Part shown: in pieces, positions 3,138 through 62,418 of the stretch
Layout of the letters: each line of letters begins with the position of its first letter
Position numbering within the stretch: the first letter of the stretch is position 1
Source: Mobula hypostoma
Lineage: Eukaryota
Reading direction: 5' to 3'
Assembly: GCF_963921235.1 (NCBI RefSeq)
Contig: NC_086097.1
Span: 107,448,001 to 107,512,000, forward strand
DNA length: 64,000 nucleotides
Notes under the pieces: generated by a model
Database searches by the model: none
What the model saw: the letters and a program-made list of their open reading frames with translations, nothing else
Told to the model about the DNA's origin: nothing
Made by a program: the position numbers and the translations under genes

Positions 3138-3775
3138 ATACACACAAAATTCAGGAGGAACTCAGCAGGTCAGGTAGCATCTATAGAAAAGAGTAAACAA
3201 CTGACGTTTCAGACCACAATCTTTCTTCAGGATTGAGGTGATAAGTGAAGCCAAGTGTGTGGGAAAGGTCAAGGACTGGAGAAGAAGGAATCTGATGGGG
3301 AGGAGAGTGGGCCACAGGAGAAAGGAAAGGAGGAGGGGACTCAGGAGGAAGTAATAGGCAGGTGAGAAGAAGTAAAAGGTCAGTGTGGGCAATAGAGGAA
3401 GGTGAAATTTGTTCACTGGAAGGAGAAATCAATGTTTATGCCATTAGGTTGGAGGCTACCCAGATGGAACATAAGGTGTTGCTCCTCCACCCTGAGAGTG
3501 GCCTCGTCTTAGCACAAGAGGAGGCCATGGATCGACACATTGGAATGGGAATGGGAATTAAAATGTTTGGCCACTGTGTAGTCCCAATTATAGTAGATGG
3601 AGCGGAGGTGCTCGATGACAGGTCTCATCAACATAGAAGAGGCCGCATCGAGAGCACTGAACATAATAGAGGACCCCAGCAGATTCGCGGGTGAAGTGTT
3701 GCCTCAGCTGGAAGGACTGTTTGGGGCCATGAATGGAGGTGAGAGAGGAGGTGTAGGGCAGCTGTAGCACTTAGG
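3138..3775 (-). mobile_element. Penelope-like element 3' part: GIY-YIG endonuclease relic plus pseudo-LTR with hammerhead motif
   Basis: ORF 3588..3770 QHFTRESAGVLYYVQCSRCGLFYVDET resembles the PLE GIY-YIG; antisense CTGAAGA..GAAACGTC at ~3200-3232. Confidence 0.8.
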
Positions 3776-6563: not shown

Positions 6564-7056
6564 TCTTTATCCTGGAATGTTGAGCTGTCAGTCCTGCCCT
6601 TAGCTCAGCCATGTAACACCCTAGTCCTGAGTCAATCCATGCTCTGAGTTTGTGTGTTCTACCTGTTAAGCCTTGAGCATTGACATAGCTGCAGTTTAAA
6701 TGAGTATTTCTATCCTGCCTTTACCGTGTCCCTGACTATGATGATTACTAATCTTGCTCTGGCTTGCTGTAGCATAGTGACTAGAACTACACAAAATATT
6801 CTGTGCAGGCTAATCAACTAACCAACTTTATCTTAGTAATCAGTAACAAGAGTGAAAAATATCAATTATAACTTATCACTTATGATAACAACCTGACAAA
6901 TGTTTCATAACTTCCATTCACAGTTACAACTATTTCAGCAAACACACAAACATATACACATGTATATGCACACATATAAATACACACATATGCACATATA
7001 AAATACACACATATGCACACAGATATACACACACATATGCATATACATACACATAT

Positions 7057-7599
7057 CTGTTCATCCATTGTCGACGTCGATGAAGACCTCAACACCATTA
7101 TGATGGTGTCAAGACTAGTGCGTGATTTGGATTTAAGTGAGGGAGAGTTGCACAGCGTCAGCCTCACTCTCTCTTCCCAATTCCCATCTGGATCCAGTGG
7201 CAAGACAGAGTCGAGACAGCTGGAGATGGGACTAGATGCAGTGGATGACCAGGACGTCTTCTGTGTCTTGTCCTGCTCCACGACGCTTGCAGAGACCGCC
7301 TTCTTGACCGTTGGACCTTCCACTGGTCTCGTCCACTCAATCCGCCGGAGTCTGTCTTCACATGCTGGGATAGACAACTCCATACCTCACTGAGGGTTTG
7401 AGACCCGTCGACTACCCTCACCTGGTTTAGCCGGCTTGTCGAAGCCGTTGCCCGGGGTGTAGCCGCTGTCGCATGCGAACAGCTACGGGGAGCCACAGGT
7501 GAGAGCTGAGTGCCATGTGGGGACCAAAGGTGGACTAACCGCCCTGAAAAGGACGCGACATGTTCCCCCACCAGAGGTGCTACCCCTCCCTGACACCCC
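7057..7599 (-). mobile_element. 543-bp non-coding retroelement (RTE 5'UTR-like) with TSD
   Basis: TSD atacatacacatat (7043-7056) / atacgtacacatat (7600-7613); degenerate relative at ~41815-42200. Confidence 0.7.
7417..7599 (-). ncRNA. HDV-like self-cleaving ribozyme candidate at the element 5' end
   Basis: Minus strand: P1 GGGGUGU/ACACCCC, P2 CUCACCUG/CAGGUGAG, P3 GGC/GCU with loop starting UCC, GG for P1.1, P4 CGGCUU-CGAC-AAGCCG, J4/2 GCUAA. Confidence 0.65.
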
Positions 7600-7734
7600 A
7601 TACGTACACATATACACCCATACACACAGATATACACATATATACACAGACACACACACACAAGCACACACACACATCCCAACATGTGCTCTTCTCAAAG
7701 AATCCACAAACAGCCAGCTTTTCAAGCACACTAT

Positions 7735-9609: not shown

Positions 9610-11121
9610 TATCATCATCATCAGGTGCCGTGCCCAGTTTGAGCTTTGACTGCCATGGCCCACACACTCCTGTTTCGAGTCAAGTGGATCAATTCATTGG
9701 TATTCATTTCCAGTTCTCTGGTTGCTGTCTCCATCATGATTTGTCTTTGTCTTCCTCTTGCTTTCTTCCCCTCAATCTTTCCCATAATTACCGTGCATTC
9801 TAACTCCTCTTTACTAAGCACATGTCCAATGAAGTTATGTTGCCTTTACATGATCTCATACATTATTTCTCTTTTTGTGTTTGCTCTGTTCATGACACCC
9901 TCATTAGATATTCATTTCGTCCATGATATTCTTTGCACCCTCCTCAAAAACTACATCTCTGCTGTTTCAATTCGTTTCCTCATGTTACTAGATATTGTCC
10001 AACATTCTGAGCCATATAACATAACTGGATAAACGTAACATTTCAGTACTCTGAGGCCGGTTGTCATGCCTAGTTTAGTATTGGTCAGTATACTCTTCAT
10101 TCTCGTAAAGGTGTCTTTTGCCATCCCTATTCTTCTTTTGATGTCTATGTTGCACCTGACATCTGATGTCACCCAGTAACAAAAGTTCTGTACTTGTTTT
10201 ATGTCTTCCCCTTTTATTCTCAGCCTGCAGATAGGATTCTCCTTCTTTTTGGATATCACCATATATTCTGTCTTTTTTGCAATTGACAGATAGACCCATT
10301 TTTGCACTTGTTTCAACAACTATATCAATTAAGTTTCGTAGTTCTTCCTCCATACTTGCAATTAACAGTGTCATCCGCATATCTCAAATTATTGATGTTT
10401 TCACTGCCAACTTTGATTCCTAAGATGTCTCTTATTTTTGTAATATTGTTTCACTGTACACATTAAATAAATCAGGGGAGAAAACACACCCTTGTCTAAT
10501 GCCTCTCTTGATTTACGTAAACGGACTCACTTTTCCATCTATTCTTACAGCAGCAGTTTGTTCCCAGTACAGATTTCTGATCAGGTGGAGGTCTTTTGAA
10601 TCTAGATCTAGAGTTTCCTGTAATATTTCAAATATCTTACTGTGCTTCACTTTATCAAATGCTTTTGTGTAGTTGATAAAACAAACAAACAAATCTTCTT
10701 GCACTTGAATAGCCCATTCTGATAGTATACTTAACATCAATACTGCATTTTTGTACCTTTATCTTTCACAAAACCACATTGTTCTTTACCTATTTCAGCT
10801 GGTATCTTACTTTTAGCTCTTGTCATCAAAATTCTTTGAAGTATCTTGATGATATGACTCATTAAACTTATGGTCCTATGTAATTCACATTCTATTGCTC
10901 CAGGTTTCTTAGGAAGAATGATAAATACTGATTTTTTCATCTCTTCCGGTATTATTCCAGTCTCATAAATGTCATTGATTAAATAAGTAAGCTTTTCATT
11001 TCCATAATCTTCAAGGGCGATAATTTGTTCTATTACTAATTCATCAGGACCTGCTGCCTTTCCTTTGTTCAACTTATTTATTGCATTACGAACTTCAGAT
11101 TTTAAAATACTTGGACCTTCA
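9610..11121 (-). mobile_element. 5'-truncated RTE (BovB-like) LINE
   Basis: GKAAGPD, YETGIIPEE, HRTISLMSH, YTKAFDKVKH, MLYGSECWT, GKIEGKKARGRQR; (TGA)n tail; TSD atgtttgcat at 9600-9609 and 11122-11131. Confidence 0.92.
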
Positions 11122-16263: not shown

Positions 16264-17160
16264 TACTTACTTACTGCCTGTTACACTACTGGCATTTAGG
16301 GCCGCAATGAAGGTCCTCCATTCCTTCATCGTGTCAGTAGTTTCCACTTGGTTTTTACTGTCAGTCCTGCAAGTCTTGGGTGGATATTCAGGAACACCGT
16401 CACACTCAGATGTAGAAGGATTCTTCATTGCTGTTTCCATAACAATGTTGTTTTTACCAGTCAGAGTTGTTATCCCTGAGCTGAACCCTTGACCCTGTAG
16501 GACTGGTGGACCACTCTGGCCTCTACTTTTTGATCTGTTTGGCATGGGTGACCCAACCCTCACTATAGGAAGGATGTGGAAGCATTGGAAAGGGTACAGA
16601 GGAGATTTACCAGGATGCTGCCTGGTTTAGAAAGTATGCATTATGATCAGAGATTAAGGGAGCTAGGGCTTTACTCTTTGGAGAGAAGGAGGATGAGAGG
16701 AGACATGATAGAGGTGTACAAGATAATAAGAGGAATAGATAGAGTGGATAGCCAGTGCCCCTTCCCCAGGGCACTACTGCTCAATACAAGAGGACATGGC
16801 TTTAAGGTAAGGGGTGGGAAGTTCAAGGGGGATATTAGAGGAAGGTCTTTTACTCAGAGAATGGTTGGTGCGTGGAATGCACTGCCTGAGTCAGTGGTGG
16901 AGGCAGATACACTAGTGAAGTTTAAGAGACTACTAGACAGGTATATGGAGGGATCTAAGGTGTGGGCTTATATGGGAGGCAGGGTTTGAGGGTCGGCACA
17001 ACATTGTGGACCGAAGGGCCTGTACTGTGCTGTACTATTCTATGTTTCTATGTTCTATGTTCTATGTACCAAGAACCTTCACTCCAGCCATCATAGCTCT
17101 TTTGGATCACTGAGGCATACAAGCCTCCAAACCATGACCAGGTCATTGTCCTCTTGGAGG
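16264..17160 (-). mobile_element. Non-autonomous RTE derivative (5'UTR joined to the ORF 3' tip), split by CR1 and inserted in a V-SINE remnant
   Basis: 3' tip encodes WRTFIAALNASSVTGSK with a (TAAG)n tail; V-SINE pieces at ~16220-16263 and ~17160-17270. Confidence 0.55.
16563..17067 (+). mobile_element. 5'-truncated CR1, same subfamily as 249-965
   Basis: ORF 16576..16989 nearly identical to ORF 223..984; (TTCTATG)n tail. Confidence 0.92.
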
Positions 17161-17330: not shown

Positions 17331-19400
17331 AAATCATAGGAATAAATCAAGGAAGGTAGTGCACCCGTGGCTGACAAGAGAAATTAGGGATAGTATCAAT
17401 TCCAAAGAAGAAGCATACAAATTAGCCAGAGAAAGTGGCTCACCTGAGGACTGGGAGAAATTCAGAGTTCAGCAGAGGAGGACAAAGGGCTTAATTAGGA
17501 AGGGGAAAAAAGATTATGAGAGAAAACTGGCAGGGAACATAAAAACTGACTGTAAAAGCTTTTATAGATATGTAAAAAGGAAAAGACTGGTAAAGACAAA
17601 TGTAGGTCCCCTACAGACAGAAACAGGTGAATTGATTATGGGGAGCAAGGACATGGCAGACCAATTGGATAATTACTTTGGTTCTGTCTTCACTAAGGAG
17701 GACATAAATAATCTTCCAGAAATAGTAGGGGACAGAGGGTCCAGTGAGATGGAGGAACTGAGCGAAATACATGTTAGTAGGGAAGTGGTGTTAGGTAAAT
17801 TGAAGGGATTGAAGGCAGATAAATCCCCAGGGCCAGATGGTCTGCATCCTAGAGTGCTTAAGGAAGTAGCCCAAGAAATAGTGGATGCATTAGTGATAAT
17901 TTTTCAAAACTCGTTAGATTCTGGACTAGTTCCTGAGGATTGGAGGGTGGCTAATGTAACCCCACTTTTTAAAAAAGGAGGGAGAGAGAAACCGGGGAAT
18001 TATAGACCGGTTAGCCTAACGTTGGTGGTGGGGAAACTGCTGGAGTCAGTTATCAAAGATGTGATAACAGCACATTTGGAAAGCGGTGAAATCATCGGAC
18101 AAAGTCAGCATGGATTTGTGAAAGGAAAATCATGTCTGACGAATCTCATAGAATTTTTTGAGGATGTAACTAGTGGAGTGGATAGGGGAGAACCAGTCGA
18201 TGTGGTATATTTGGATTTTCAAAAGGCTTTTGACAAGGTCCCACACAGGAGATTAGTGTGCAAACTTAAAGCACACGGTATTGGGGGTAAGGTATTGATG
18301 TGGATAGAGAATTGGTTAGCAGACAGGAAGCAAAGAGTGGGAATAAACGGGACCTTTTCAGAATGGCAGGCGGTGACTAGTGGGGTACCGCAAGGCTCAG
18401 TGCTGGGACCCCAGTTGTTTACAATATATATTAATGACTTGGATGAGGGAATTAAATGCAGCATCTCCAAGTTTGCGGATGACACGAAGCTGGGTGGCAG
18501 TGTTAGCTGTGAGGAGGATGCTAAGAGGATGCAGAGTGACTTGGGTAGGTTGGGTGAGTGGGCAAATTCATGGCAGATGCAATTTAATGTGCATAAATGT
18601 GAAGTTATCCACTTTGGTGGCAAAGATAGGAAAACAGATTATTATCTGAATGGTGGCCGATTAGGAAAAGGGGAGGTGCAACGAGACCTGGGTGTCATTA
18701 TACACCAGTCATTGAAAGTGGGCATGCAGGTACAGCAGGCGGTGAAAAAGGTGAATGGTATGCTGGCATTTATAGCGAGAGGATTCGAGTACAGGAGCAG
18801 GGAGGTACTACTGCAGTTGTACAAGGCCTTGGAGAGACCACACTTGGAGTATTGTGCGCAGTTTTGGTCCCCTAATCTGAGAAAAGACATCCTTGCCATA
18901 GAGGGAGTATAAAGAAGGTTCACCAGATTGATTCCTGGGATGGCAGGACTTTCATATGAAGAAAGATTGGATGAACTGGGCTTGTACTTGTTGGAATTTA
19001 GAAGATTGAGGGGGATCTGATTGAAACGTATAAAATCCTAAAGGGATTGGACAGGCTAGATGCAGGAAGATTGTTCCCGATGTTGGGGAAGTCCAGGACA
19101 AGGGGTCACAGTTTGAGGATAAAGGGGAAGCCTTTTAGGACCGAGATTAGGAAAAACTTCTTCACACAGAGAGTGGTGAATCTGTGGAATTCTCTGCCAC
19201 AGGAAACAGTTGAGGCCAGTTCATTGGCTATATTTAAGAGGGAGTTAGATATGGCCCTTGTGGCTACGGGGATCAGGGGGTATGGAGGGAAAGCTGGGGC
19301 GGGGTTCTGAGTTGGATGATCAGCCATGATCATAATAAATGGCGGTGCAGGCTCGAAGGGCCGAATGGCCTACTCCTGCACCTATTTTCTATGTTTCTAT
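17331..19400 (+). mobile_element. Young 5'-truncated CR1 LINE with a complete RT domain
   Basis: ORF 17359..18912: KSPGPDGLHP, NYRPVSLT, YLDFQKAFDKVPH, GVPQGSVLGP, KFADDTK; one stop and one frameshift near the 3' end. Confidence 0.96.
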
Positions 19401-41488: not shown

Positions 41489-41814
41489 TTATATACAGCA
41501 GATTCTGGTTAATTAGGGCACATTAGGACCAGTTTATTTTGACGCAATTTAGCAGCTGCCCAAATCAGCTAATGTTGTATGGAAATAGTTAAAAAGATAT
41601 TAAAAAAAGCTAAGAAAAATAGAGGTACTAGGCTATGGGTAAGCCTAGTAATTTCTAAGGTAGGGACAAGTTTGGCACAACTTTGTGGGCCAAAAGGCTT
41701 GTATTGTACTGTAGGTTTTCTATGTTTCTATGTATAAAAAAGACAAACTACCATTTAGCTGAGTAAGAAATTATGTATTTAGATAAAATACAGAACAAAT
41801 TGGAACACTACCAA

Positions 41815-42200
41815 TGGTGATTGTCCGTTGTATCCAACAATGGCAGGAAAACTGTACAGGAGAGGTTTTAAAGTGGAAAAATCATTACTCTGGGGCAGTT
41901 CCACTCTCTCAACCTTGAAACTCCAGGTCCATTGGGATGAGTAAACCTCACAAGTGGGGTCTTCCTTGGTCTCAGTGGATGGCCATGGCTTCTGTGTCTC
42001 GTCATGCCCTTCGTCTTGATAAAACATTGCTACTCATTCTGCCTGAGCTGACTTGCATGCTAGGACATGCATGTCCCTATCTCACCGGGATATGAGACTC
42101 ACTGGCTACCCTCACCTTGTTTAGCCTGCCTGTCAAAAAGGTGTACTGGTGTCTGCCTGCTGTCGTATGCAAACAGCTACAGGTGAGAGCTGAATATCTG
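41815..42200 (-). mobile_element. Degenerate relative of the 7057-7599 element
   Basis: Shared ctaccctcacct.gtttagcc..gctgtcg.atgc.aacagcta..caggtgagagctga. Confidence 0.65.
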
Positions 42201-49880: not shown

Positions 49881-52800
49881 TTGCTCTCTCTCTCTCTCTC
49901 TGCTCCCTCTATCTCGCTGTATTTATCTACTCTGTCTGTCTCACTCTGTCTGGTCTCCTCTCTCTGTCTTGCTCTCCCCCCACCCTCCCTGTCTCCACCC
50001 CCCCCCCGCTATCTATCTAGCTCCTCTTCTCTCTCTATCACCCCATCTCTCTATCCCACTCATTCCTCTCTATACCCCCACTCCTCTCTCTATCGCCACC
50101 TCTGTCATGCATGCGCGAGCGCACACACACACACGCGCACACACACACACAGACACACATGCGTACATCCGTCTCTCGCGTGCCCCCATCTTACCCCTCC
50201 CCATCACACCCCACACTCTCCCTCTACCCCCACATGCTCCCCCTACCCCCCACAATCTCTCCCTATCTCCCCCTATAGCCCCCCACACCCCCCTCTAGCC
50301 CATCAACATTCCCTCTAGTCCCCCGCACACTCCCCCTATCTCTCCATCGCCCCGCTCTCTCCCCATCCCCCTGCACTCTCCCCATCTCCCCATCCCCCTG
50401 CACTCTCCCCATCTCCCCCATTCCCCTGCACTCTCCCCATCTCCCCCATTCCCCCCACACTCTCCCCATCTCCCCCATCCCCAGCTGACTCCCCATCCCC
50501 GTACTCTCCCCTATCTCCCCCAACCCCCCCGCACTCTCCCCCTATCTGCCCCATCCCCTGCACTATTCTCTATCTCCCCATCACCCTGCACTCTCTCCTA
50601 TCTCCCCATCCCCCCGCACTCTCCCCCATCTCCCGCGCACACTCCCCCTATCTCCCCCATCCCCCGCACCTACCCCCATCTCTCCCATCCCCCCGCACTT
50701 TCCCTTATCTCCCCCATCTCCCGCACACTCCCCCTATCACCCCCATCCCCCCGCACTATCCCCTATCTCCCCCATTCCCCCTCTTTCCCCATCTCCCCAT
50801 TCCCCCTCTTTCCCCATCTCCCCATTCCCCCGCACTCCACCTATCTTCCCCATCCCCCCGCACTCTCCCCTATCTCCCCCATCCCCACACTTTCCCCATC
50901 CTCCCGCACTCTCCCCATCTGCCCCATCCCCCTGCACTCTCCCCTATCTCCCCATCCCCCTGCACTCTCCCCTATCTCCTCATTCCCCCCGTTCTCTCCC
51001 CCTATCTCTCCCATCACCCCCACACTCTCCCTTATCTCCCCCATCACCCCGCACTCTCCCCTATCTCCCCCATTGCCCCGCACTCTCCCCTATCTCCCCC
51101 ATCGCCCCGCACTCTCCCCTATCTCCCCCATCGCCCCGCACTCTCCCCTATCTCCCTCATCCCCCTGCACTCTCCCCTATCTCCTCATTCCCCCGTTCTG
51201 TCCCCCCTATCTCTCCCATCCCCCGCACTCTCCACATCTCCCCATCCCCCCGCACTCTCCACTATCTCCCCCATCCCCTGCACTCTCCCCATATCCCCAT
51301 CCCCCGCATTCTCCCCAAATCCCCATCCCCCGCATTCTCCCCATATCCACATCCCCCGCATTCTCCCCATAACCCCATCCCCCGCACTCTCCCCGTCTCC
51401 CCATCCCCCCGCACTCCCCCGTCTCCCCCATCCCCCGCACTCCCCCGTCTCCCCCATCCCCCGCACTCCCCGTCTCCCCCATCCCCCCGCACTCACCATC
51501 TCCCCCATCCCCCGCACTCCCCCTGTCTCCCCATCCCCCGCACTCCCCCTGTCTCCCCATCCCCCGCACTCACCGTCTCCCCCATCCCCCGCACTCCCCA
51601 TCTCCCCCATCCCCCGCACTCCCCATCTCCCCCATCCCCCGCACTTTCCCTTATCTCCCCCATCTCCCGCACACTCCCCCTATCACCCCCATCCCCCCGC
51701 ACTATCCCCTATCTCCCCCATCCACCCTCTTTCCACATCTCCCCATTCCCCCTCTTTCCCCATTCCCCCGCACTCCACCTATCTTCCCCATCCCCCCGCA
51801 CTCTCCCCTATATCCCCATCCCCACACTTTCCCCATCCTCCCGCACTCTCCCCATCTGCCCCATCCCCCTGCACTCTCCCCTATCTCCCCATCCCCCTGC
51901 ACTCTCCCCTATCTCCTCATTCCCCCCGTTCTCTCCCCCTATCTCTCCCATCACCCCCACACTCTCCCTTATCTCCCCCACCCCCCCGCACTCTCCCCAT
52001 CTCCCCGCACTCTCTCCTATCTCCCCCATCGCCCCGCACTCTCCCCTATCTCCCCCATCGCCCCGCACTCTCCCCTATCTCCCTCATCCCCCTGCACTCT
52101 CCCCTATCTCCCCATCCCCACACTTTCCCCATCCTCCCGCACTCTCCCCATCTGCCCCATCCCCCTGCACTCTCCCCTATCTCCCCATCCCCCTGCACTC
52201 TCCCCTATCTCCTCATTCCCCCCGTTCTCTCCCCCTATCTCTCCCATCACCCCCACACTCTCCCTTATCTCCCCCACCCCCCCGCACTCTCCCCATCTCC
52301 CCGCACTCTCCCCTATCTCCCCCATCGCCCCGCACTCTCCCCTATCTCCCCCATCGCCCCGCACTCTCCCCTATCTCCCTCATCCCCCTGCACTCTCCCC
52401 TATCTCCTCATTCCCCCGTTCTGTCCCCCCTATCTCTCCCATCCCCCGCACTCTCCCCATCTCCCCATCCCCCCGCACTCTCCACTATCTCCCCCATCCC
52501 CTGCACTCTCCCCATATCCCCATCCCCCGCATTCTCCCCAAATCCCCATCCCCCGCATTCTCCCCAAATCCCCATCCCCCGCATTCTCCCCAAATCCCCA
52601 TCCCCCGCATTCTCCCCAAATCCCCATCCCCCGCATTCTCCCCATATCCACATCCCCCGCACTCTCCCCATCTCCCCCATCCCCCGCACTCCCCGTCTCC
52701 CCCATCCCCCGCACTCCCCGTCTCCCCCATCCCCCGCACTCCCCGTCTCCCCCATCCCCCGCACTCCCCGTCTCCCCCATCCCCCGCACTCCCCGTCTCC

Positions 52801-55800
52801 CCCATCCCCCGCACTCCCCCTGTCTCCCCCATCCCCCGCACTCTCCCCTATCTCCCCATCCCCCGCACTCTCCCCTATCTCCCCACCCCCCGAACTCTCC
52901 CCATCACCCCCATTCCCCGCACTCTCCCCTATCTCCCCCATCCTCACTGCACTCTCCCCATCCCCCTGCAGTCACCCCTATCTGCCCCATCTCCCCGCAC
53001 TCTCACTTATCTCCCCGAACCTCCCCGCACTCTCCCCCTATCTGCCCCATCCCCCCGCACTCTCCCCTTTCTCCCACATCCCCCCGCACTCTCCCCTTTC
53101 TCCCCATCCCCCCGCACACTCCCCTATCTCCCCCATCCCCCCATCTAGCCCCCCTGCACTCTCCCCTTATCTCCCCATCCCCTCCACACTCCCTTTTTAG
53201 CCCCCCTGCACTCTTCCCCATCCCCCGCACTCTCCCCTATCTCCCCCAACCCCCGCACTCTCCCCTATCTCCCCCATCCCCCGCACTATCCCCTATCTCT
53301 CCCATTCCCCGAACTCTCTCCCATATCTCCCCATCCCCCCTCTAGCCCCCGCACTCTCCCCCTATCTTCCCCATCCCCTGCACTCTCCCCATCTCCCCAT
53401 CACCCCACCTAGCCCCCCTGCACTCTCCCCTTATCTCCCCATCCCCTCCACACTCCCCTTTTAGCCCCCCTGCGCTCTTCCCCAGCCCCCCTGCGCTCTT
53501 CCCCATCCCCCGCACTCTCCCCTATCTCCCCCAACCCCCGCACTCTCTCCTATCTCCCCCATCCCCCGCACTATCCCCTATCTCTCCCATTCCCCGAACT
53601 CTCTCCCATATTTCCCCATCCCCCCTCTAGCCCCTGCACTCTCCCCCTATCTTCCCCATCCCCTGCACTCTCCCCATCTCCCCCATCACCCCATCTAGCC
53701 CCCCTGCACTCTCCCCTTATCTCCCCATCCCCTCCACACTCCCTTTTTAGCCCCCCTGCGCTCTTCCCCAGCCCCCCTGCGCTCTTCCCCATCCCACGCA
53801 CTCTCCCCTATCTCCCCCCATCCCACGCACTCTCCCCTATCTCCCCCCATCCCCCGCACTCTCCCCATCTCCCCATCCCCTGCACTCTCCCCATCTCCCC
53901 ATCCCCCGCACTCTCCCCTATCTCCCCCATCCTCCCGCACTCTCCCCTATCTCCCCATCCCCCGAACTCTCCCCATCTCCCCATCCTCCCCGCATTCTCC
54001 CCATCTCCCCATCCCCCCGCACTCTCCCCTATCTCCCCCATCCCCCTACTCTCTCCCATTTCTCCCCCATCCCCCCTCTAGCCCCCCGCACTCTCCCCTA
54101 TCTTCCCCATCCCCTGCACTCTCCCCTATCTTCCCCATCAGCCCATCTAGCCCCCCTGCACTCTCCCCTCCACACTCCCCATCCCCTCCACACTCCCCCT
54201 CTAGCCCCCCCTGCACTTTCCCCCAGCCCCCCCGCACTTTCCCCCAGCCCCCCCGCACTTTCCCCCAGCCCCCCCGCACTTTCCCCCAGCCCCCCCGCAC
54301 TTTCCCCCAGCCCCCCCGCACTGTCCCTCCAGCCCCCCCGCACTGTCCCTCCAGCCCCCCCGCACTGTCCCTCCAGCCCCCCCGCACTGTCCCTCCAGCC
54401 CCCCCGCACTGTCCCTCCAGCCCCCCCGCACTGTCCCTCCAGCCCCCCCGCACTGTCCCTCCAGCCCCCCCGCACTGTCCCTCCAGCCCCCCCCGCACTG
54501 TCCCTCCAGCCCCCCCCGCACTGTCCCTCCAGCCCCCCCCGCACTGTCCCTCCAGCCCCCCCCGCACTGTTCCAGCCCCCCCCGCACTATCCCTCCAGCC
54601 CCCCCGCACTATCCCTCCAGCCCCCCCGCACTATCCCTCCAGCCCCCCCCGCACTATCCCTCCAGCCCCCCCCGCACTATCCCTCCAGCCCCCCCCGCAC
54701 TATCCCTCCAGCCCCCCCCGCACTATCCCTCCAGCCCCCCCCGCACTATCCCTCCAGCCCCCCCCGCACTATCCCTCCAGCCCCCCCCGCACTGTCCCTC
54801 CAGCCCCCCCCGCACCGTCCCTCCAGCCCCCCCGCACCGTCCCCCCAGCCCCCCCCCGCACCGTCCCCCCAGCCCCCCCCGCACCGTCCCCCCAGCCCCC
54901 CCCGCACCGTCCCTCCAGCCCCCCCCGCACCGTCCCTCCAGCCCCCCCCGCACCGTCCCTCCAGCCCCCCCGCACCGTCCCTCCAGCCCCCCCGCACTCT
55001 TCCCTCCAGCCCCCCCGCACTCTTCCCTCCAGCCCCCCCGCACTCTTCCCTCCAGCCCCCCCGCACTCTTCCCCCAGCCCCCCGCACTCTCCCCCATCCC
55101 CCCGCATTCTCCCCTAGCTCCCCCATCCCCCCCCGCTCTCTCCCCTATCTCCTCATTCCCCCGTTCTCTCTCCCTATCTCTCCCATCCCCCGCACTCCCC
55201 TCATCTCCCCATCACCCTGCACTCTCCCGTATCTCCCCTATCCCCCGTACTCTCCCCTATCTCCCTCTCCCCCTCCGCACTCTCCCCATCCCCCGCACTC
55301 TCCCCATCCCCCGCACTCTCCCCATCCCCCGCACTCTCCCCATCCCCCGCACTCTCCCCATCCCCCGCACTCTCCCCATCCCCCGCACTCTCCCCATCCC
55401 CCGCACTCTCCCCATCCCCCGCACTCTCCCCATCCCCCGCACTCTCCCCATCCCCCGCACTCTCCCCATCCCCCGCACTCTCCCCATCACCCCGCACTCT
55501 CCCCATCTCCCCATCACCCCGCACTCTCCCCAACTCCCCATCACCCCGCACTCTCCCCTATCTCCCCATCCCCCGCACTCTCCCCTATCTCCCCCATCCC
55601 CCGCACTCTCCCCTATCTCCCCCATCCCCCTGCACTCTCCCCTATCTCCTCATTCCCCCGTTCTCTCCCCCTATCTCCCCATCTCCCCGCACTCTCCCCT
55701 ATCTCCCCCATCACACCGCACTCTCCCCTATCTCCCCATCCCCCTGTACTCTCCCCTATCTCCCCCATCCCCCGCACTCTCCCCTATCTCTCCCATCCCC

Positions 55801-58800
55801 CGCACTCTCCCCTATCTCCCCCATCCCCCTGCACTCTCCGCTATCTCCCCATCCCCCTGCACTCTCCCCACCCCCCCTCTCCCCTATCCTCCCCGCACTC
55901 TCCCCTATCTCCTCATTCCCCCGCACTCTCCCTTATCTCCCCCATCCCCCCACTCTCCCTATCTCCCTCATCCCCCCGCACACTCCCCATCTCCCCATCC
56001 CCAGCTGTCTCCCCATCCCCCGCACTCCCCCTATCTCCCCCATCGCCCGCACTCTCCCCATCACCCCCATTCCCCGCACTCTCCCCTATCTCCCCCATCC
56101 TCCCTGCACTCTCCCCATCCCCCTGCACTCTCCCCTATCTGCCCCATCCCCCCACACTCTCCCTTATCTCCCCCAACCCCCCCCCGCACTCTCCCCCTAA
56201 CTGCCCCATCCCCCCGCACTATCCCCCATCTCCCCATCCCCCCGCACTATCCCCCATCTCCCCATCCCCCCGCGCTCTCCCTGTCCCACCGCACACTCCC
56301 CCTATCTTCCCCATTCCCCGCACTCTCCCCTTTCTCATCCATCACCCCGCACTCTCTCCTATCTCCCCCATCTCCCCATCCCCTCGCACACTCCCCATCT
56401 CCTCAATCCCCCTGCACTCTCCCTATCTCCCCCATCCCCCCGCACTCTCCCCATCTCCCCGCACTCTCCCTTATCTCCTCCATTCCTCCGCACTCTCCCT
56501 TATCTCCTCCATCCCCCCGCACACTCCCCCATCTCCCCCATCCCCCCGCACACTCCCCCATCCCCCCAGACTGACCCCTATCTCCCCCATTCCCCGCACT
56601 CTCCCCATCACCCCCATTCCCCGCACTCTCCCCTATCTCCCCCATCCTCCCTGCACTCTCCCCTATCTGCCCCATCCCCCTACACTCTCCCTTATCTCCC
56701 CCAACCCCCCCCCGCACTCTCCCCCATCTCCCCCGCACACTCCCCTTATCTCCCCCATCCCCCGCGCTCTCCCCGTCCCCCCGCACACTCCCCCTATCTT
56801 CCCCATCCCCCGCACTCTCCCCTTTCTCATCCATCACCCCGCACTCTCCCCTTTCTCATCCATCACCCCGCACTCACTCCTATCTCCCCCATCCCCCCGC
56901 ACTCTCCCCCATCTCCCCATCCCCCTGCACACTCCCCATCTCCCCAATCCCCCCGCACTCTCCCTATCTCCCCAATCCCCCTGCACTCTCCCCATCCCCC
57001 CGCACTCTCCCCATCCCCCCGCACTCTCCCTTATCTCCTCCATCCCCCCGCACACTCCTCCATCTCCCCCATCCCCCCACACTGACCCCTATCTCCCCAT
57101 CCCCCGCACTCTCCCCATCACCCCCATTCCCCGCACTCTCCCCTATCTCCCCCATCCTCCCTGCACTCTCCCCTATCTGCCCCATCCCCGCCGCACTCTC
57201 CCCCATCTGCCCCATCCCCCCCGCACTCTCCCCCATCTCCCCCATCCCCCGCACTCTCCCTTATCTCCCCCATCACCCCGCACTCTCCCCTTTCTCATCC
57301 ATTACCCCGCACTCTCTTCTATCTCCCCCATCCCCCCGCACTCTCCCCATCCCCCCGCACTCTCCCTTATCTCCTCCATCCCCCTGCACACTCCCCCATC
57401 TCCCCCATCCCCCTGCACACTCCCCCATCTCCCCCATCCCCCCACACTGTCCCCTATCTCCCCCATCCCCCGCACTCTCCCCTATCTCCCGCACTCTCCC
57501 CCATCTCCCGCACTCTCCCCCATCTCCCGCACTCTCCCCCATCTCCCGCACTCTCCCTCATCTCCCGCACTCTCCCTCATCTCCCGCACTCTCCCTCATC
57601 TCCCGCACTCTCCCTCATCTCCCGCACTCTCCCTCATCTCCCGCACTCTCCCTCATCTCCCGCACTCTCCCCTATCTCCCCATCCCCCCGCACTCTCCCC
57701 TATCTCCCCCATCCCCCCGCACTCTCCCAGATCCCCCCACACTCTTACCTCTCTCCCCCATCTTCCTGCACTCTCCCCTCTCTCCCCGATCCCCCCGCAC
57801 TCTCCCTTATCTCCCCCATCCCCCCACACACTCCCCCTATCTCCCCCATCCCCCCACGCACTCGCCCTTATCTCCCCATCTCCTGCACTCTCCCCTATCT
57901 CCCCATCCCCCCGCACTCTCCCCCATCTCCCCCATCCCCCTCTCTCCCCTATCCTCCCCGCACTCTCCCCATCTGCCCATCCCCCAGCACTCTACCCTAT
58001 CTCCCTATCCTCCCCGCACTCTCCCCATCTGCCCATCCCCCAGCACTCTACCCTATCTCCCCATCCCCCTGTAGTATCCCCTATCTCTCCCATTCCCCGA
58101 ACTCTCTCCCATATCTCCCCCATCCCCCCTCTAGCCCCCGCACTCTCTCCCTATCTTCCCCGTCCCCTGCACTCTCCCTTATGTCCCCCATCACCCCTTC
58201 TAGCCCCCCTGCACTCTCCCCTATCTCCCCAGCCCCCCCCGCACTCTCCCCCCAGCCCCCCCCGCACTGTCCCCCCAGCCCCCCCGTCCCCCCAGCCCCC
58301 CCGCACTGTCCCCCCAGCCGCTCCACACTCTCCCCCAGCAACCCCGGACTCTCCCCCTAGCCCCCGGCACACTCTCTTTCTACCCCTCTCTACCTTCTCT
58401 GTCTTTCTGTCTACTCTATCTCCCCTCTCTCTTCCCTCTGTGTGTGTCTCTGTGTCTCTCTGTCTCACTTTCACTCTCTCTACTCTCTCTCTCTGTATCT
58501 CTCTAGCTCCTTCCTCTGTCTCTCTCTCCCGCACTCTCCCCCTATCTCCCCCATCCTCTCTGCACTCTCCCCTATCTCCCCCATCCTCTCTGCACTCTCC
58601 CCATCTCCCCATCCCCCCGCACTCTCCCCATCTCCCCATCCCCCCGCACTCTCCCCATCTCCCTGCACTCTCCCTTATCTCCCCCATCCCCCCTCTCTCT
58701 CCTATCTTCCCCGCACTCTCCCCTTTCTCCCCCACCCCCCCGCACTCTCCCCATCTCCCTGCACTCTCCCTTATCTCCCCCATCCCCCCTCTCTCTCCTA

Positions 58801-61800
58801 TCCTCCCCGCACTCTCCCCTTTCTCCCCCATCCCCCCGCACTATCCCCTATCTCTCCCATTGCCCGAACTCTCTCCCATATCTCCCCCATCCCCCTCTAG
58901 CCCCCGCACTCTCCCCCTATCTTCCCCATCCCCTGCACTCTCCCCATCTCCCCCATCACCCCATCTAGCCCTCCTGCACTCTCCCCTTATCTCCCCATCC
59001 CCTCCACACTCCCCTTTTAGCCCCCCTGCGCTCTTCCCCAGCCCCCTGCACTCTTCCCCATCCCCTGCACTCTCCCCTATTCCCCCCATCCCCTGCACTC
59101 TCCCCTATTCCCCCCATCCCCCGCACTCTCCCCATCTCCCCCAACCCCCGCACTCTCCCCTATCTCCCCCACCCCCCCGCACTATCCCCTATCTCTCCCA
59201 TTCCCCGAACTCTCTCCCATATCTCCCCCACCCCCCCGCGCTCTCCCCCACCCCCCCGCACTCTTTCCCACCCCCCGCACTATCCCCATCTCCCCATCCC
59301 CCATCCCCCACACTCTCTCCTATCTCCACCATCCCCCTGCACTCTCCCCCATCCCCCGCACTCTCCCCTTTCTCATCCATCACCCCGCACTCTCCCTATC
59401 TCCCCCATTCCCCTGCACTCTCCCCTATCTCCCCATACCCCGCACTCTCCCCTATCTCCCCCATCCCCCTGCACTCTCCCAGATCCCCCCGCACTCTCCC
59501 CTCTCTCCCCCATCTCCCTGCACTCTCCCCCATCCCCCCGGACTCTCCCTTATCTCCCCCATCCCCCCACACACTCCCCCTATATCCCCCATCCCCCCGC
59601 ACTCTCCCCTATCTCCCGCACTCTCCCCTATCTCCCGCACTCTCCCCTATCTCCCGCACTCTCCCCTATCTCCCGCACTCTCCCCTATCTCCCGCACTCT
59701 CCCCATCTCCCGCACTCTCCCCATCTCCCGCACTCTCCCCATCTCCCGCACTCTCCCCCATCTCCCCCATCCCCCCGCACTCTCCCCTATCTCCCCCATC
59801 CCCCCGCACTCTCCCCTATCTCCCCCATCCCCCCGCACTCTCCCAGATCCCCCCCGCACTCTCCCATCTCTCCCCCATCTTCCTGCACTCTCCCCTCTCG
59901 CCCCCATCCCCCCGCACTCTCCCTTATCTCCCCTATCCCCCCGCACTCTCCCCCTATCTCCCCCATCCCCCCACACACTCTCCCTTATCTCCCCATCTCC
60001 TGCACTATCCCCTATCTGCCGCACTCTCCCCCTATCTCCCCATCCCCCCGCACTCTCCCCTATCTCCCCCATCCCCCCGCACTCTCCCCTATCTCCCCCA
60101 TCCCCCCGCACTCACCCCTATCTCCCCCATCCCCCCGCACTCACCCCTATCTCCCCCCGCACTCACCCCTATCTCCCCCATCCCCCCGCACTCTCCCCTA
60201 TCTCCCCCATCCCCCGCACTCTCCCTTATCTCCCCCATCCTCCCGCACTCTCCCCATCCCCCCACACTCTCCCCCATCTCCCCCATCCCCCTCTCTCCCC
60301 TATCCTCCCCGCACTCTCCCCATCTGCCCATCCCCCAGCACTCTACCCTATCTCCCCCATCCCCCTGTAGTATCCCCTATCTCTCCCATTCCCCGAACTC
60401 TCTCCCATATCTCCCCCATCCCCCCTCTAGCCCCCGCACTCTCCCCCTATCTTCCCCGTCCCCTGCACTCTCCCCCTATCTCCCCAGCCCCCCCGCACTG
60501 TCCCCTCAGCCGCCCCACACTCTCCCCCAGCAACCCCGGACTCTCCCCCTAGCCCCCCGCACACTCTCTCTCTACCCCTCTCTACCTTCTCTGTCTTTCT
60601 GTCTACTCTATCTCCCCTCTCTCTTCCCTCTGTGTGTGTCTCTGTGTCTCTCTGTCTCACTTTCACTCTCTCTACTCTCTCTCTGTATCTCTCTATCTCC
60701 TTCCTCTGTCTCTCTCTCCCGCACTCTCCCCATCTCCCCCATCCTCTCTGCATTCTCCCCTATCTCCCCCATCCTCTCTGCACTCTCCCCATCTCCCCAT
60801 CCCCCCGCTCTCTTCCCATCTCCCCATCCCCCTGCACTCTCCCTTATCTCCCCATCCCCCTGCACTCTCCCCATCCCCCCATCTCACCCATCCCCCCTGC
60901 ACTCTCCCCAACTCCCCCATCCCCCTGCACTCTCAGCATCTCCCCCATCTCCCGCACTCTCCCCATCTCCCACATCCCACCCGCACTCTCCCCCTATCTC
61001 CCCCATCCCTCACTCTCTCCCCATCCCCCCGCACTCTCCCCTATCTCATCCATCCCCCCACACTATCCGCCTATCTCCCCCATCCCCCCGCTCTCTCCCC
61101 ATCCCCCTGCACTCTCCCTTATCTCCCCATCCCCCTGCACTCTCCCCATCCCCCCTATCTCACCCATCCCCCCTGCACTCTCCCCAACTCCCCCATCCCC
61201 CTGCACTCTCAGCATCTCCCCAACCCCCGCACTCTCCCCTATCTCGCCCATCCTCCCCGCACTCTCCCCTATCTCGCCCATCCTCCCCGCACTCTCCCCT
61301 ATCTCCCCCATCCCCCCGCACTCTCCCCTATCTCCCCCATCAGCCCATCTAGCCCCCCGCACTCTCCCCCTATCTCCCCATCCCCTCCACACTCCCCCTC
61401 TAGCCCTTCTGCACTTCCCCCAGCCCCCCCGCAGTGTCCCTCCAGCCCCCCCACACTCTCCCCCAGCCCCACGCACTCTCCCCCTAGCCCCCCAGCACTC
61501 TCTCTCTCTACCCCCTCTACCTTCTCTGTCTCTCTGTCTACTCTATCTCCTCTCTCTCTATCTTCCCTCTAGCCCCCACTCTCCCTCCACCCCCTACTCT
61601 CCCTCTACCCCCACATGCTACCACTACCCCCCACAATCTCTCCCTATCTTCCCCTCTAGCCCCCCGCACACTCCCCCTATTTCACCCATCCCCCCGCAAA
61701 CTCTCCCCTATCTCACCCATCCCCCCTGCACTCTCCCCAACTCCCCCATCCCCCTGCACTCTCAGCATCTCCCACATCCCACCCGCACTCTCCCCCTATC

Positions 61801-62418
61801 TCCCCCATCCCTCAATCTCTCCCCATCCCCCGCACTCTCCCCTATCTCATCCACCCCCCCACACTATCCGCCTATCTCCCCCATCCTCCCCGCACTCTCC
61901 TCTATCTTCCCCATCCCCTGCACTCTCCCCTATCTTCCCCATCAGCCCATCTAGCCCCCCTGCACTCTCCCCCATTTCCCCATCCCCTCCACACTCCCCC
62001 TCTAGCTCCCCTGCACTTCCCCCAGCCCCCCGCACTCTTCCCCCAGCCCCCCGCACTCTTCCCCCAGCCCCCCGCACTCTTCCCCCAGCCCCTCCACACT
62101 CTCCCCCTAGCCCCCCAGCACTCTCTCTCTCTACCCCTCTCTACCTTCTCTGTCTCTCTGTCTACTCTATCTCCTCTCTCTCTATCTCCCCTCTACCCCC
62201 CCACTCTCCCTCTGCCCCCCACTCTCCCTCTACCCCCACACGCTACCCCTAACCCCCACAATCTCTCCCTATCTCCCCCTATAGCTCCCCGCACCCCCTC
62301 TAGCCCCTCAACGTTCCCTCTCTAGTCCCCCACACACTCCCCCTATCTCCCCATCCCCCTGATCTCTCCCCCATCCCCTGCACTCTCCCCTATCTCACCC
62401 ATCCCCCCTGCACTCTCC
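49881..62418. repeat. ~12.5-kb C-rich complex satellite, monomer ~ctctcccctatctcccccatccccccgca, with homogeneous sub-arrays
   Basis: Directly visible; sub-arrays (cccccccgcactgtccctccag)n ~54310-55050, 18-mer ~55280-55490, 19-mer ~57490-57665. Confidence 0.97.

Follow-up and report, generated by a model that had tools for sequence, protein, structure and literature searches.

Introduction

Bipartite, non-autonomous derivatives of RTE retrotransposons are an established class of mobile element, with MAR4_MD, RTESINE2, and WALLSI3 described from marsupials and RTE-N2_Lch from the coelacanth; the relevant sections of that account suggest that such elements keep the LINE 5′ end perhaps owing to a ribozyme, and leave open why few LINE clades produce bipartite derivatives (Kojima, 2018, PMC5786205). 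RTEs and some non-autonomous elements leave co-transcripts via HDV-like ribozymes (Weinberg, 2019, PMC6765202), and a base-paired J1/2 speeds such ribozymes, as in drz-Agam-2-1 (Webb, 2016, PMC4908430). Internally deleted non-LTR elements that have likewise kept a 5′ HDV-like ribozyme include the R2 SIDEs and the trypanosome NARTc/SIDER elements, which belong to other clades and for which the corresponding passages of PMC5786205 mention no L3 hairpin.

The window, that is, the entire 64,000-nt stretch of DNA analyzed, carries on its minus strand a copy of family A (Table 1), which is about 561 nt long and present in thousands of copies. Like the four elements above, which measure ~550 nt, the family consists of an RTE 5′ UTR and a short 3′ end, with no ORF and no tRNA head (Kojima, 2018). 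It has a bipartite origin, a sharp 5′ boundary, target-site duplications (TSDs), and a conserved, partly covarying fold. We consider it highly probable that the window feature is a short, non-coding, two-ended RTE copy, the first ~190 bases of whose family are predicted to form an HDV-type ribozyme with a hairpin in L3, cutting before the family's first G. Elements of this class and ribozymes of this class are already known; the insert in L3 and a helix joining the 5′ UTR to the 3′ end would be new.

Relative to the bipartite elements in Repbase, family A is a separate, younger derivative whose parent resides in this genome, a comparison that did not extend to whether their 5′ ends carry the hairpin. 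Positions 346–548 of MAR4_MD, as given in the supplement of Kojima (2018), have visible homology to the 3′-terminal third of family A. Also named in that supplement are the turtle elements RTE-11_PSi, RTE-2_CPB, and RTE-1_PSi, which, unlike family A, are autonomous RTEs, and for which the passages drawn on describe no ribozyme structure; in the sequences given there, RTE-11_PSi 370–519 differs from family A nt ~359–507 at 11 of 150 positions (by eye), and the family A tail resembles RTE-1_PSi 3726–3767. Among described ribozymes, the HDV-like ones at RTE 5′ ends, such as drz-Agam-2-1, are similar in their order of elements (P1-J1/2-P2-P3-L3-P1.1-P4-J4/2), in their cut at P1 nt 1, in their place at the element 5′ end, and in a long base-paired J1/2 with short linkers (Webb, 2016; Weinberg, 2019). 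The family A ribozyme differs in an L3 of 27–29 nt with a hairpin instead of 7–8 nt, in a J4/2 of 7 nt or else a bulged P2 top, and in a G1 that pairs with C in most lineages.

Table 1. Features of the family A copy and its flanks, in window coordinates
Feature	Position	Strand	Remarks
Family A copy	7057..7599	minus	~561-nt bipartite non-autonomous RTE family; clipped at 5′ end
Upstream TSD copy (probable)	7600..7613	minus	ambiguous; microsatellite flank
Downstream TSD copy (probable)	7043..7056	minus	13/14 identical to 7613–7600
RTE 5′ UTR-derived part	7101..7599	minus	window copy 89.6–90.7% identical to three partner copies
Remaining 3′ part	7057..7100	minus	contains 7098–7088, arm from RTE 3′ end
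Structured J1/2 domain (P1.2-like)	7508..7598	minus	two-sided changes in inner helices
J1/2 base helix	7598–7589 with 7517–7508	minus	includes heptamer previously read as P1
P2 5′ strand	7496..7503	minus	CUCACCUG; two-sided change in L310 and L286
P2 3′ strand	7417..7424	minus	CAGGUGAG; partner of 7503–7496
P3 5′ strand (U)GGC	7492..7495	minus	AGC/GCU in L286
L3 core UCCCCGUA	7484..7491	minus	UCCUCGU in family D, as in canonical relatives L297 and L285
P1.1 (predicted)	CC of L3 core with GG 7453–7452	minus	
Extra hairpin, 3′ end of L3	7465..7483	minus	5-bp stem, 7–9 nt loop
P3 3′ strand	7461..7463	minus	GCU in window copy, GCC in family
P1 3′ strand ACACCCC	7454..7460	minus	family partner is first 7 nt, absent from window copy
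P4 hairpin, 6 bp	7432..7447	minus	two-sided changes in 4/6 pairs
J4/2 GCUAAAC	7425..7431	minus	predicted catalytic C at 7430
11-bp hairpin over deletion joint	7088..7113	minus	arms 7113–7103 (RTE 5′ UTR) and 7098–7088 (RTE 3′ end)

Origin from a resident RTE

By its alignments, family A is a bipartite RTE derivative in which about 518 nt at the 5′ end (about 93% identical) and about 45 nt at the 3′ end come from one RTE of this genome. Ten of the 11 partner loci match the family from near nt 1 (in one case nt 70) to nt 493–521 at 87–94% identity, the 5′ match running for ~500 nt in nine of the 11, 453 nt in one, and 80 nt in one; eight of the 11 match again 3–4 kb farther on, to family nt 518–566, at 79–89% over 42–49 nt. 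The partner has APE and RT domains (PF03372 and PF00078) in its endonuclease/reverse-transcriptase frame. All 11 loci are broken, with longest frames of 159–434 aa, and the protein relatives, which have a single ORF of about 1,060 aa, come from shark, turtles, ray, frog, and invertebrates, with matches of 83% to a shark and 81% to a softshell turtle. The RTE clade name is based on the domains, the protein relatives, and UTR identity to RTE-11_PSi, and not on a tree. The partner was located by a third search pattern, built on a peptide motif, and a search with a joined-motif pattern returned one match. Two other RTE groups were rejected as partners, the DUF6451-type RTEs (28 loci) and a second group (19 loci), neither of which has DNA similarity to family A.

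A SINE-like family mobilized by RTE had been proposed for this locus in the initial annotation; the family does appear to be non-coding and RTE-mobilized, but it is not independent, being instead an internal-deletion derivative of a specific RTE of this genome. A pol III SINE with a tRNA, 5S, or 7SL head was likewise rejected: a tRNA search and box patterns found neither a tRNA nor pol III A/B boxes in family A, there is no small-RNA head, and the head is the RTE 5′ UTR. The initial annotation had also called the element promoter-less; it has none of these pol III features, but an internal pol II promoter may be present. A long open frame on the minus strand was taken as a chance occurrence rather than a gene, as it has no Pfam match and has its ATG in the window copy only.

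The stretch of family A nt ~359–507 (window ~7114–7254) shares ~93% identity with the turtle RTE-11_PSi, and the decayed partner retains 76–83% protein identity to shark and turtle records. These identities, at the DNA and protein levels, suggest horizontal transfer.

A first look at the 3.48-Gb genome gave 4,255 candidate copies of family A, and the element is also present in sequencing runs of at least eight organisms; the two family A contigs in run X19 are so small a share as to be no evidence of habitat.

The 5′ end and the target site

Starts were counted with an exact 21-nt pattern that begins at the second GGGG, has 1,515 matches in the genome, and leaves out copies with a C 13 bases upstream; the leader was scored by hand in the first 100 of the listed matches, all on one contig (C1), with at most one substitution allowed. 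The full 9-nt leader GGGGT(G/A)TAT was found in 74 of these 100 copies, a leader short of one base in six, of two bases in six, and a shorter one in 11, and only three started near a site of the 7599 type (at most 2 nt of leader). Contigs of public runs exit the element at this first G into unrelated flanks (132 in run X1, 10 in X17, and 123 in X5). The element had been annotated as starting exactly at 7599, with the suggestion that full-length copies be checked for a start at the GGGGTGT there; instead, copies routinely extend upstream, the family begins 9 nt earlier at another GGGGUGU, and the window copy belongs to a clipped minority.

The window copy lacks the first 5–9 nt of family A, carries a 9-nt internal deletion, and diverges by 4.6% from the family consensus. 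The 14-nt duplication that flanks it does stop at 7600, but since the flank is a TG/TA microsatellite, the exact junction is not fixable. The final 4–5 nt of the duplication are microhomologous to the end of the missing leader, which fits an insertion joined by microhomology; alternatively, GGGTGTAT at 7619–7612 could be a displaced leader. The copy lost its true P1 strand on insertion, and is probably either dead or able to cut only in a rearranged fold.

Of 52 family A copies checked, 36 have both the full leader and the tail, and 30 of these 36 are bounded by an exact TSD of 7–13 nt, flush with the first G in 16 and one base off in six; seven of the TSDs are 7-mers, so that some are possibly chance matches. 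Extra bases at the 5′ joint are mostly T (17/35), and position −1 of full-leader copies is T in 46 and G in 10 of 74, without an excess of G. In R2, a 5′-joint pattern of this kind goes with run-off from an uncapped RNA end, and the extra T without extra G fits such run-off in family A as well. An unlikely alternative is that the sharp 5′ end marks the start site of an internal pol II promoter, with the fold either left over in a catalytically silent form or serving to bind the RTE protein; promoter and ribozyme do coincide in the first 77 nt of L1Tc, as parts of PMC3383444 describe, but a cap-type extra G at −1 is missing here. The TSDs begin with A in 21 of 30 cases, next to tails of (CAA)n/(CCAA)n, and these A-starting TSDs fit the finding of Nishiyama and Ohshima (2018, PMC6007223) that tail and first TSD base are linked. 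Family A copies diverge from the consensus by a median of 3.6% (24 copies); all core pairs and the catalytic C are intact in nine of 28 sampled copies, and the C itself in 25 of 28.

P1 and the ribozyme fold

The motifs named in the initial annotation all lie where it placed them on the minus strand, namely GGGGUGU (7599–7593), GGC-UCC (7494–7489), and GCUAA (7431–7427), together with ACACCCC, the CUCACCUG/CAGGUGAG pair, the GG, P4, and the extra hairpin (Table 1). The heptamer assigned to P1 is another matter. Family A opens with two GGGGUGU heptamers, 9 nt apart, the second of which, at 7599–7593, forms the base of the ~90-nt J1/2 hairpin in every family consensus. P1 formed from the first heptamer is 7–12 kcal/mol better than from the second in all six of the six family consensuses, and families A (with its parent, P), B, D, E, and F of this genome all start at the first. 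Two RTEs from metagenomes carry changes in this helix: in L282, P1 reads GUGGUGU/ACACCAC, paired at 7/7 positions with one pair changed on both sides, and the second heptamer pairs at 3/7; in L310 it reads AGGGUGU/ACACCCU, and the second heptamer could still pair at 6/7. Given the energies, the shared start, and the changes in L282 and L310, the 7599–7593 heptamer is not the family P1 and belongs to the J1/2 base helix, and the compensatory changes in the two metagenome RTEs argue that the P1 5′ strand is the first heptamer. It is true that the second heptamer is complementary to ACACCCC, that the ribozyme descriptor matches from 7599, and that the window copy begins there. However, with so few copies starting at this site and the heptamer engaged in J1/2, poorer as P1, and largely unpaired in L282, the original assignment of both P1 and the element start to 7599 is scarcely credible.

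P1 is not perfect in every copy. A position 6 A·C mismatch occurs in ~13 of 100 family A copies, yet their ends are precise, and the mismatch is tied to a second marker (8/10 vs. 6/36, p = 0.0004), pointing to a source lineage. Among R2 ribozymes, about a quarter have mismatches at the top of P1, and P1 mismatches can reduce activity, as sections of Eickbush (2013, PMC3774820) report.

The arrangement of motifs in HDV order, as first proposed, goes beyond chance: a long-L3 descriptor matched none of 20,000 dinucleotide shuffles when held to nt 1, nor any of 1,500 when free to start anywhere, a generous control that excludes compositional chance only, as the descriptor was written from the window sequence itself. 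Folded alone, 7599–7410 reaches −82.3 kcal/mol (z −1.9). The nested double pseudoknot of P1, P2, P3, P1.1, and P4 is formable in order in all seven lineages, and across five family consensuses P1, P2, P3, and P1.1 together are invariant at 39 of 41 positions, whereas in J1/2 the figure is 50 of 96. Across 22 real copies, pairing holds in 89.9% of cells, and both sides have changed in 21 of the 63 pairs, compared with 13.2 ± 2.2 in 500 shuffles, a control that ignores the relatedness of the copies. These two-sided changes fall mainly in J1/2, where the two inner helices show them in 5/9 and 5/6 pairs, and in P4. Covariation is found in J1/2 and P4; P1, P2, P3, and P1.1 are paired but nearly invariant, without covariation among copies within this genome.

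Covariation of P1, P2, and P3 comes from three metagenome contigs, among them L286, which lacks the P1 5′ strand. In L310, P2 has changed on both sides and P4 has been rebuilt; L286 keeps the core, but its P2 and P3 pairs differ and its L3 is a plain 7 nt; P1.1 shows no two-sided change in any lineage examined. J4/2 is GC(U/C)AAAC in all lineages. The metagenome set comprises 80 RTE loci, many without 5′ ends, and a complete ribozyme of the family A type is present in two of them (L282 and L310); run over the 80, model R1 found the hairpin form in two (both used in training), a hairpin-less core in one, and a weak canonical match in one. An exact pattern scan of metagenomes gave no matches, and viral contigs no relative. 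Rfam reported nothing on the window at gathering score, only microsatellite miRNA noise with E up to 10; it was equally blank on the canonical relatives L297 and L285, and its silence on the window therefore says little.

These data return us to the possibility of a pol II start. Nested energy minimization favors an extended P2, in which UGGC pairs with GCUA of J4/2 and the catalytic C is buried, and a lineage with a mismatched P1 was amplified with precise ends; both observations could be expected of a silent fold. Against this, in L282 and L310 it is exactly the first 7 nt whose changes are matched in the P1 3′ strand, and the catalytic C is constant in every lineage whereas the neighboring base varies between U and C. 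The proposal of a non-coding, RTE-mobilized element that has an HDV-like fold at its head, with an atypical hairpin in L3, holds up.

If the ribozyme reading is correct, pol II would transcribe a source copy either by read-through out of host DNA or starting at a promoter in the UTR. The first 6–7 nt would pair with ACACCCC as P1, and the long J1/2 helix would bring P1 and P2 together, aiding cleavage via linkers of 2–3 nt and 4 nt, as measured for drz-Agam-2-1 (PMC4908430). The C of GCUAA would then cleave the RNA before G1, 9 nt upstream of the start of the window copy, and the endonuclease/reverse transcriptase of the parent RTE, acting in trans, would bind the shared 3′ end; target-primed reverse transcription would then copy the RNA until it ran off at the cut end.

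The hairpin in L3

Canonical HDV-like ribozymes have an L3 of 7–8 nt. In all seven lineages considered here L3 measures 27–29 nt, the usual core being followed by a hairpin of 5 bp. The hairpin is kept in families A (with P), B, D, E, and F and in L282 and L310, and is absent from the related RTE L286, which, like L297 and L285, has a short L3. Its stem is near-invariant, so that the support consists of a change in loop length (7 or 9 nt) and one-sided changes. L297 and L285 have a canonical L3, UCCUCGU/C, with a similar J4/2, and the L3 of family D opens with the same UCCUCGU; from these sequences and the short L3 of L286, the hairpin can be placed as an insertion into an L3 that is ordinary apart from this addition at its 3′ end. 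Such an L3 makes the element a variant working like an HDV-like ribozyme rather than a canonical member. On the sequences compared, the hairpin is a property of the parent clade, inherited by family A from the parent RTE, and it is likely a peripheral insert that is tolerated because the 3′ end of L3, where it sits, is extruded; selection would keep it in that clade. Family C (L084–L103) had been considered as a further bearer of the hairpin and was dropped, its helices mapping differently.

The insertion point can be drawn otherwise. The GCU that opens the "hairpin" could be the 3′ strand of P3, leaving a normal L3 of 8 nt and placing the insert between P3 and P1: GGC can pair with that GCU, and the hairpin-less L286 has AGCU there as its P3 3′ strand, which makes the insertion point ambiguous. 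The GCC just before the P1 3′ strand, however, does not vary in any of the seven lineages and is fully complementary in each, and all of them retain the 5-bp stem, which this placement would require to open; we regard the placement as very improbable.

A full-text literature search, which did not cover Ruminski (2011), Webb (2009), or Webb and Luptak (2011), found no description of an HDV-like ribozyme with an L3 hairpin, and the sections of PMC4870747 and PMC7245038 drawn on describe neither such a ribozyme nor a 5′–3′ helix. If the L3 insert holds, its novelty would lie in its site, since the HDV active site is formed by this loop. Nature supplies counterparts that have the hairpin (family A) or lack it (L286 and L297), so that its role can be tested directly, and motif searches built on a short L3 would have undercounted the ribozymes of vertebrate genomes by thousands of copies.

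A possible long-range helix across the deletion joint

An 11-bp hairpin spans the deletion joint of family A, with the joint inside its 4-nt loop; in the parent its arms are 3.5–3.8 kb apart. In full-length RTEs, the corresponding arms stand at fixed anchors 3.3–3.8 kb apart and are complementary despite changed sequence. Anchored arms pair at 10–11 of 11 positions in three partner loci (a fourth, L168, has an inserted base), at 11/12 in L283, at 8 and then 2 in L289, and at 10/10 in L282; by eye, L286 pairs 4 plus 8 with a loop. In the supplementary sequences of Kojima (2018), again by eye, RTE-1_PSi and RTE-3_AMi each pair at 9/9, and MAR4_MD has the same hairpin at its own joint. Among random 10-mers from the same locus, 5 of 5,691, 2 of 4,420, and 172 of 7,606 pair as well as the observed arms, and in cross-pairing one of three 5′ arms does better with the 3′ arm of another lineage (9 vs. 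8). Only the anchored comparison is informative, an unanchored search for a 5′–3′ helix being mostly not above shuffles. The 5′ anchor pattern chose wrong sites in L282 and L162, and most of the 80 metagenome loci are without one anchor, so that the helix was scored in the rest only.

As a lead, we infer from these sequences that a long-range helix may join the ends of the RTE RNA and favor a skip by the reverse transcriptase; the deletion likely arose where the 5′ UTR pairs with the 3′ end in the full-length RNA. Our full-text literature search found no description of a 5′–3′ helix of this kind. A conserved helix with the joint in its loop would offer a testable answer to the question, left open in the pertinent part of Kojima (2018, PMC5786205), of why few LINE clades, RTE above all, go bipartite. 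More tentatively, and at somewhat less than even probability, a whole RTE branch, probably reaching turtles and marsupials, may carry an active HDV-type ribozyme with an L3 hairpin that short-L3 descriptors and Rfam have missed, its RNAs being looped by a 9–12-bp helix between 5′ UTR and 3′ end, with skipping across that helix yielding two-ended copies repeatedly.

Related families and other features of the window

The joint has also received additional sequence. In L208:1505–2205 and L214:1505–2208 (element orientation; G000:C1 near 18.34 and 24.89 Mb), a tRNA-SINE-like insert of ~130 nt sits exactly at the joint. This three-part subfamily accounts for two of 30 sampled copies, with the RTE tail following the insert and TSDs around the whole.

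Family B, an older sister family, is represented in the window by a 5′-truncated, non-coding copy (41814–42193, minus strand), and starts as a family at the same leader. A 26-mer from it has 715 genome matches with up to one mismatch; a parent of family B was not found. In family D (L179–L193), both 5′ heptamers share a C at position 7, as if the leader had been regenerated from, or had evolved together with, the second repeat. Family E (L231–L260) gave 1,754 first-look candidates; in many copies the sequence beyond about nt 380 is another 3′ part, and by sequence these copies appear to be a chimeric subfamily headed by the same ribozyme.

Family C, present in the window at 16270–16558 and 17081–17133 (minus strand), has 6,002 first-look candidates of ~430 nt with an RTE-type tail. 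In this family and in the RTE at L147, the first 5′ bases pair downstream, and a P2-like helix differs between the two yet stays paired; these 5′ ends are possibly HDV-like with a very large P4. A more distant RTE of the group (5′ ends of L137, L141, L149, and L154) has a ~90-nt head with the same CUAAAC motif and a possible 5–6-bp pseudoknot; for this L137 group (family G) no convincing mapping was obtained.

Elsewhere in the window, decayed reverse-transcriptase fragments of other LINEs lie at 9660–11102 (minus strand) and 17698–18870 (plus strand), and positions 50190–62300 are occupied by a 12-kb C-rich minisatellite with extreme GC skew.
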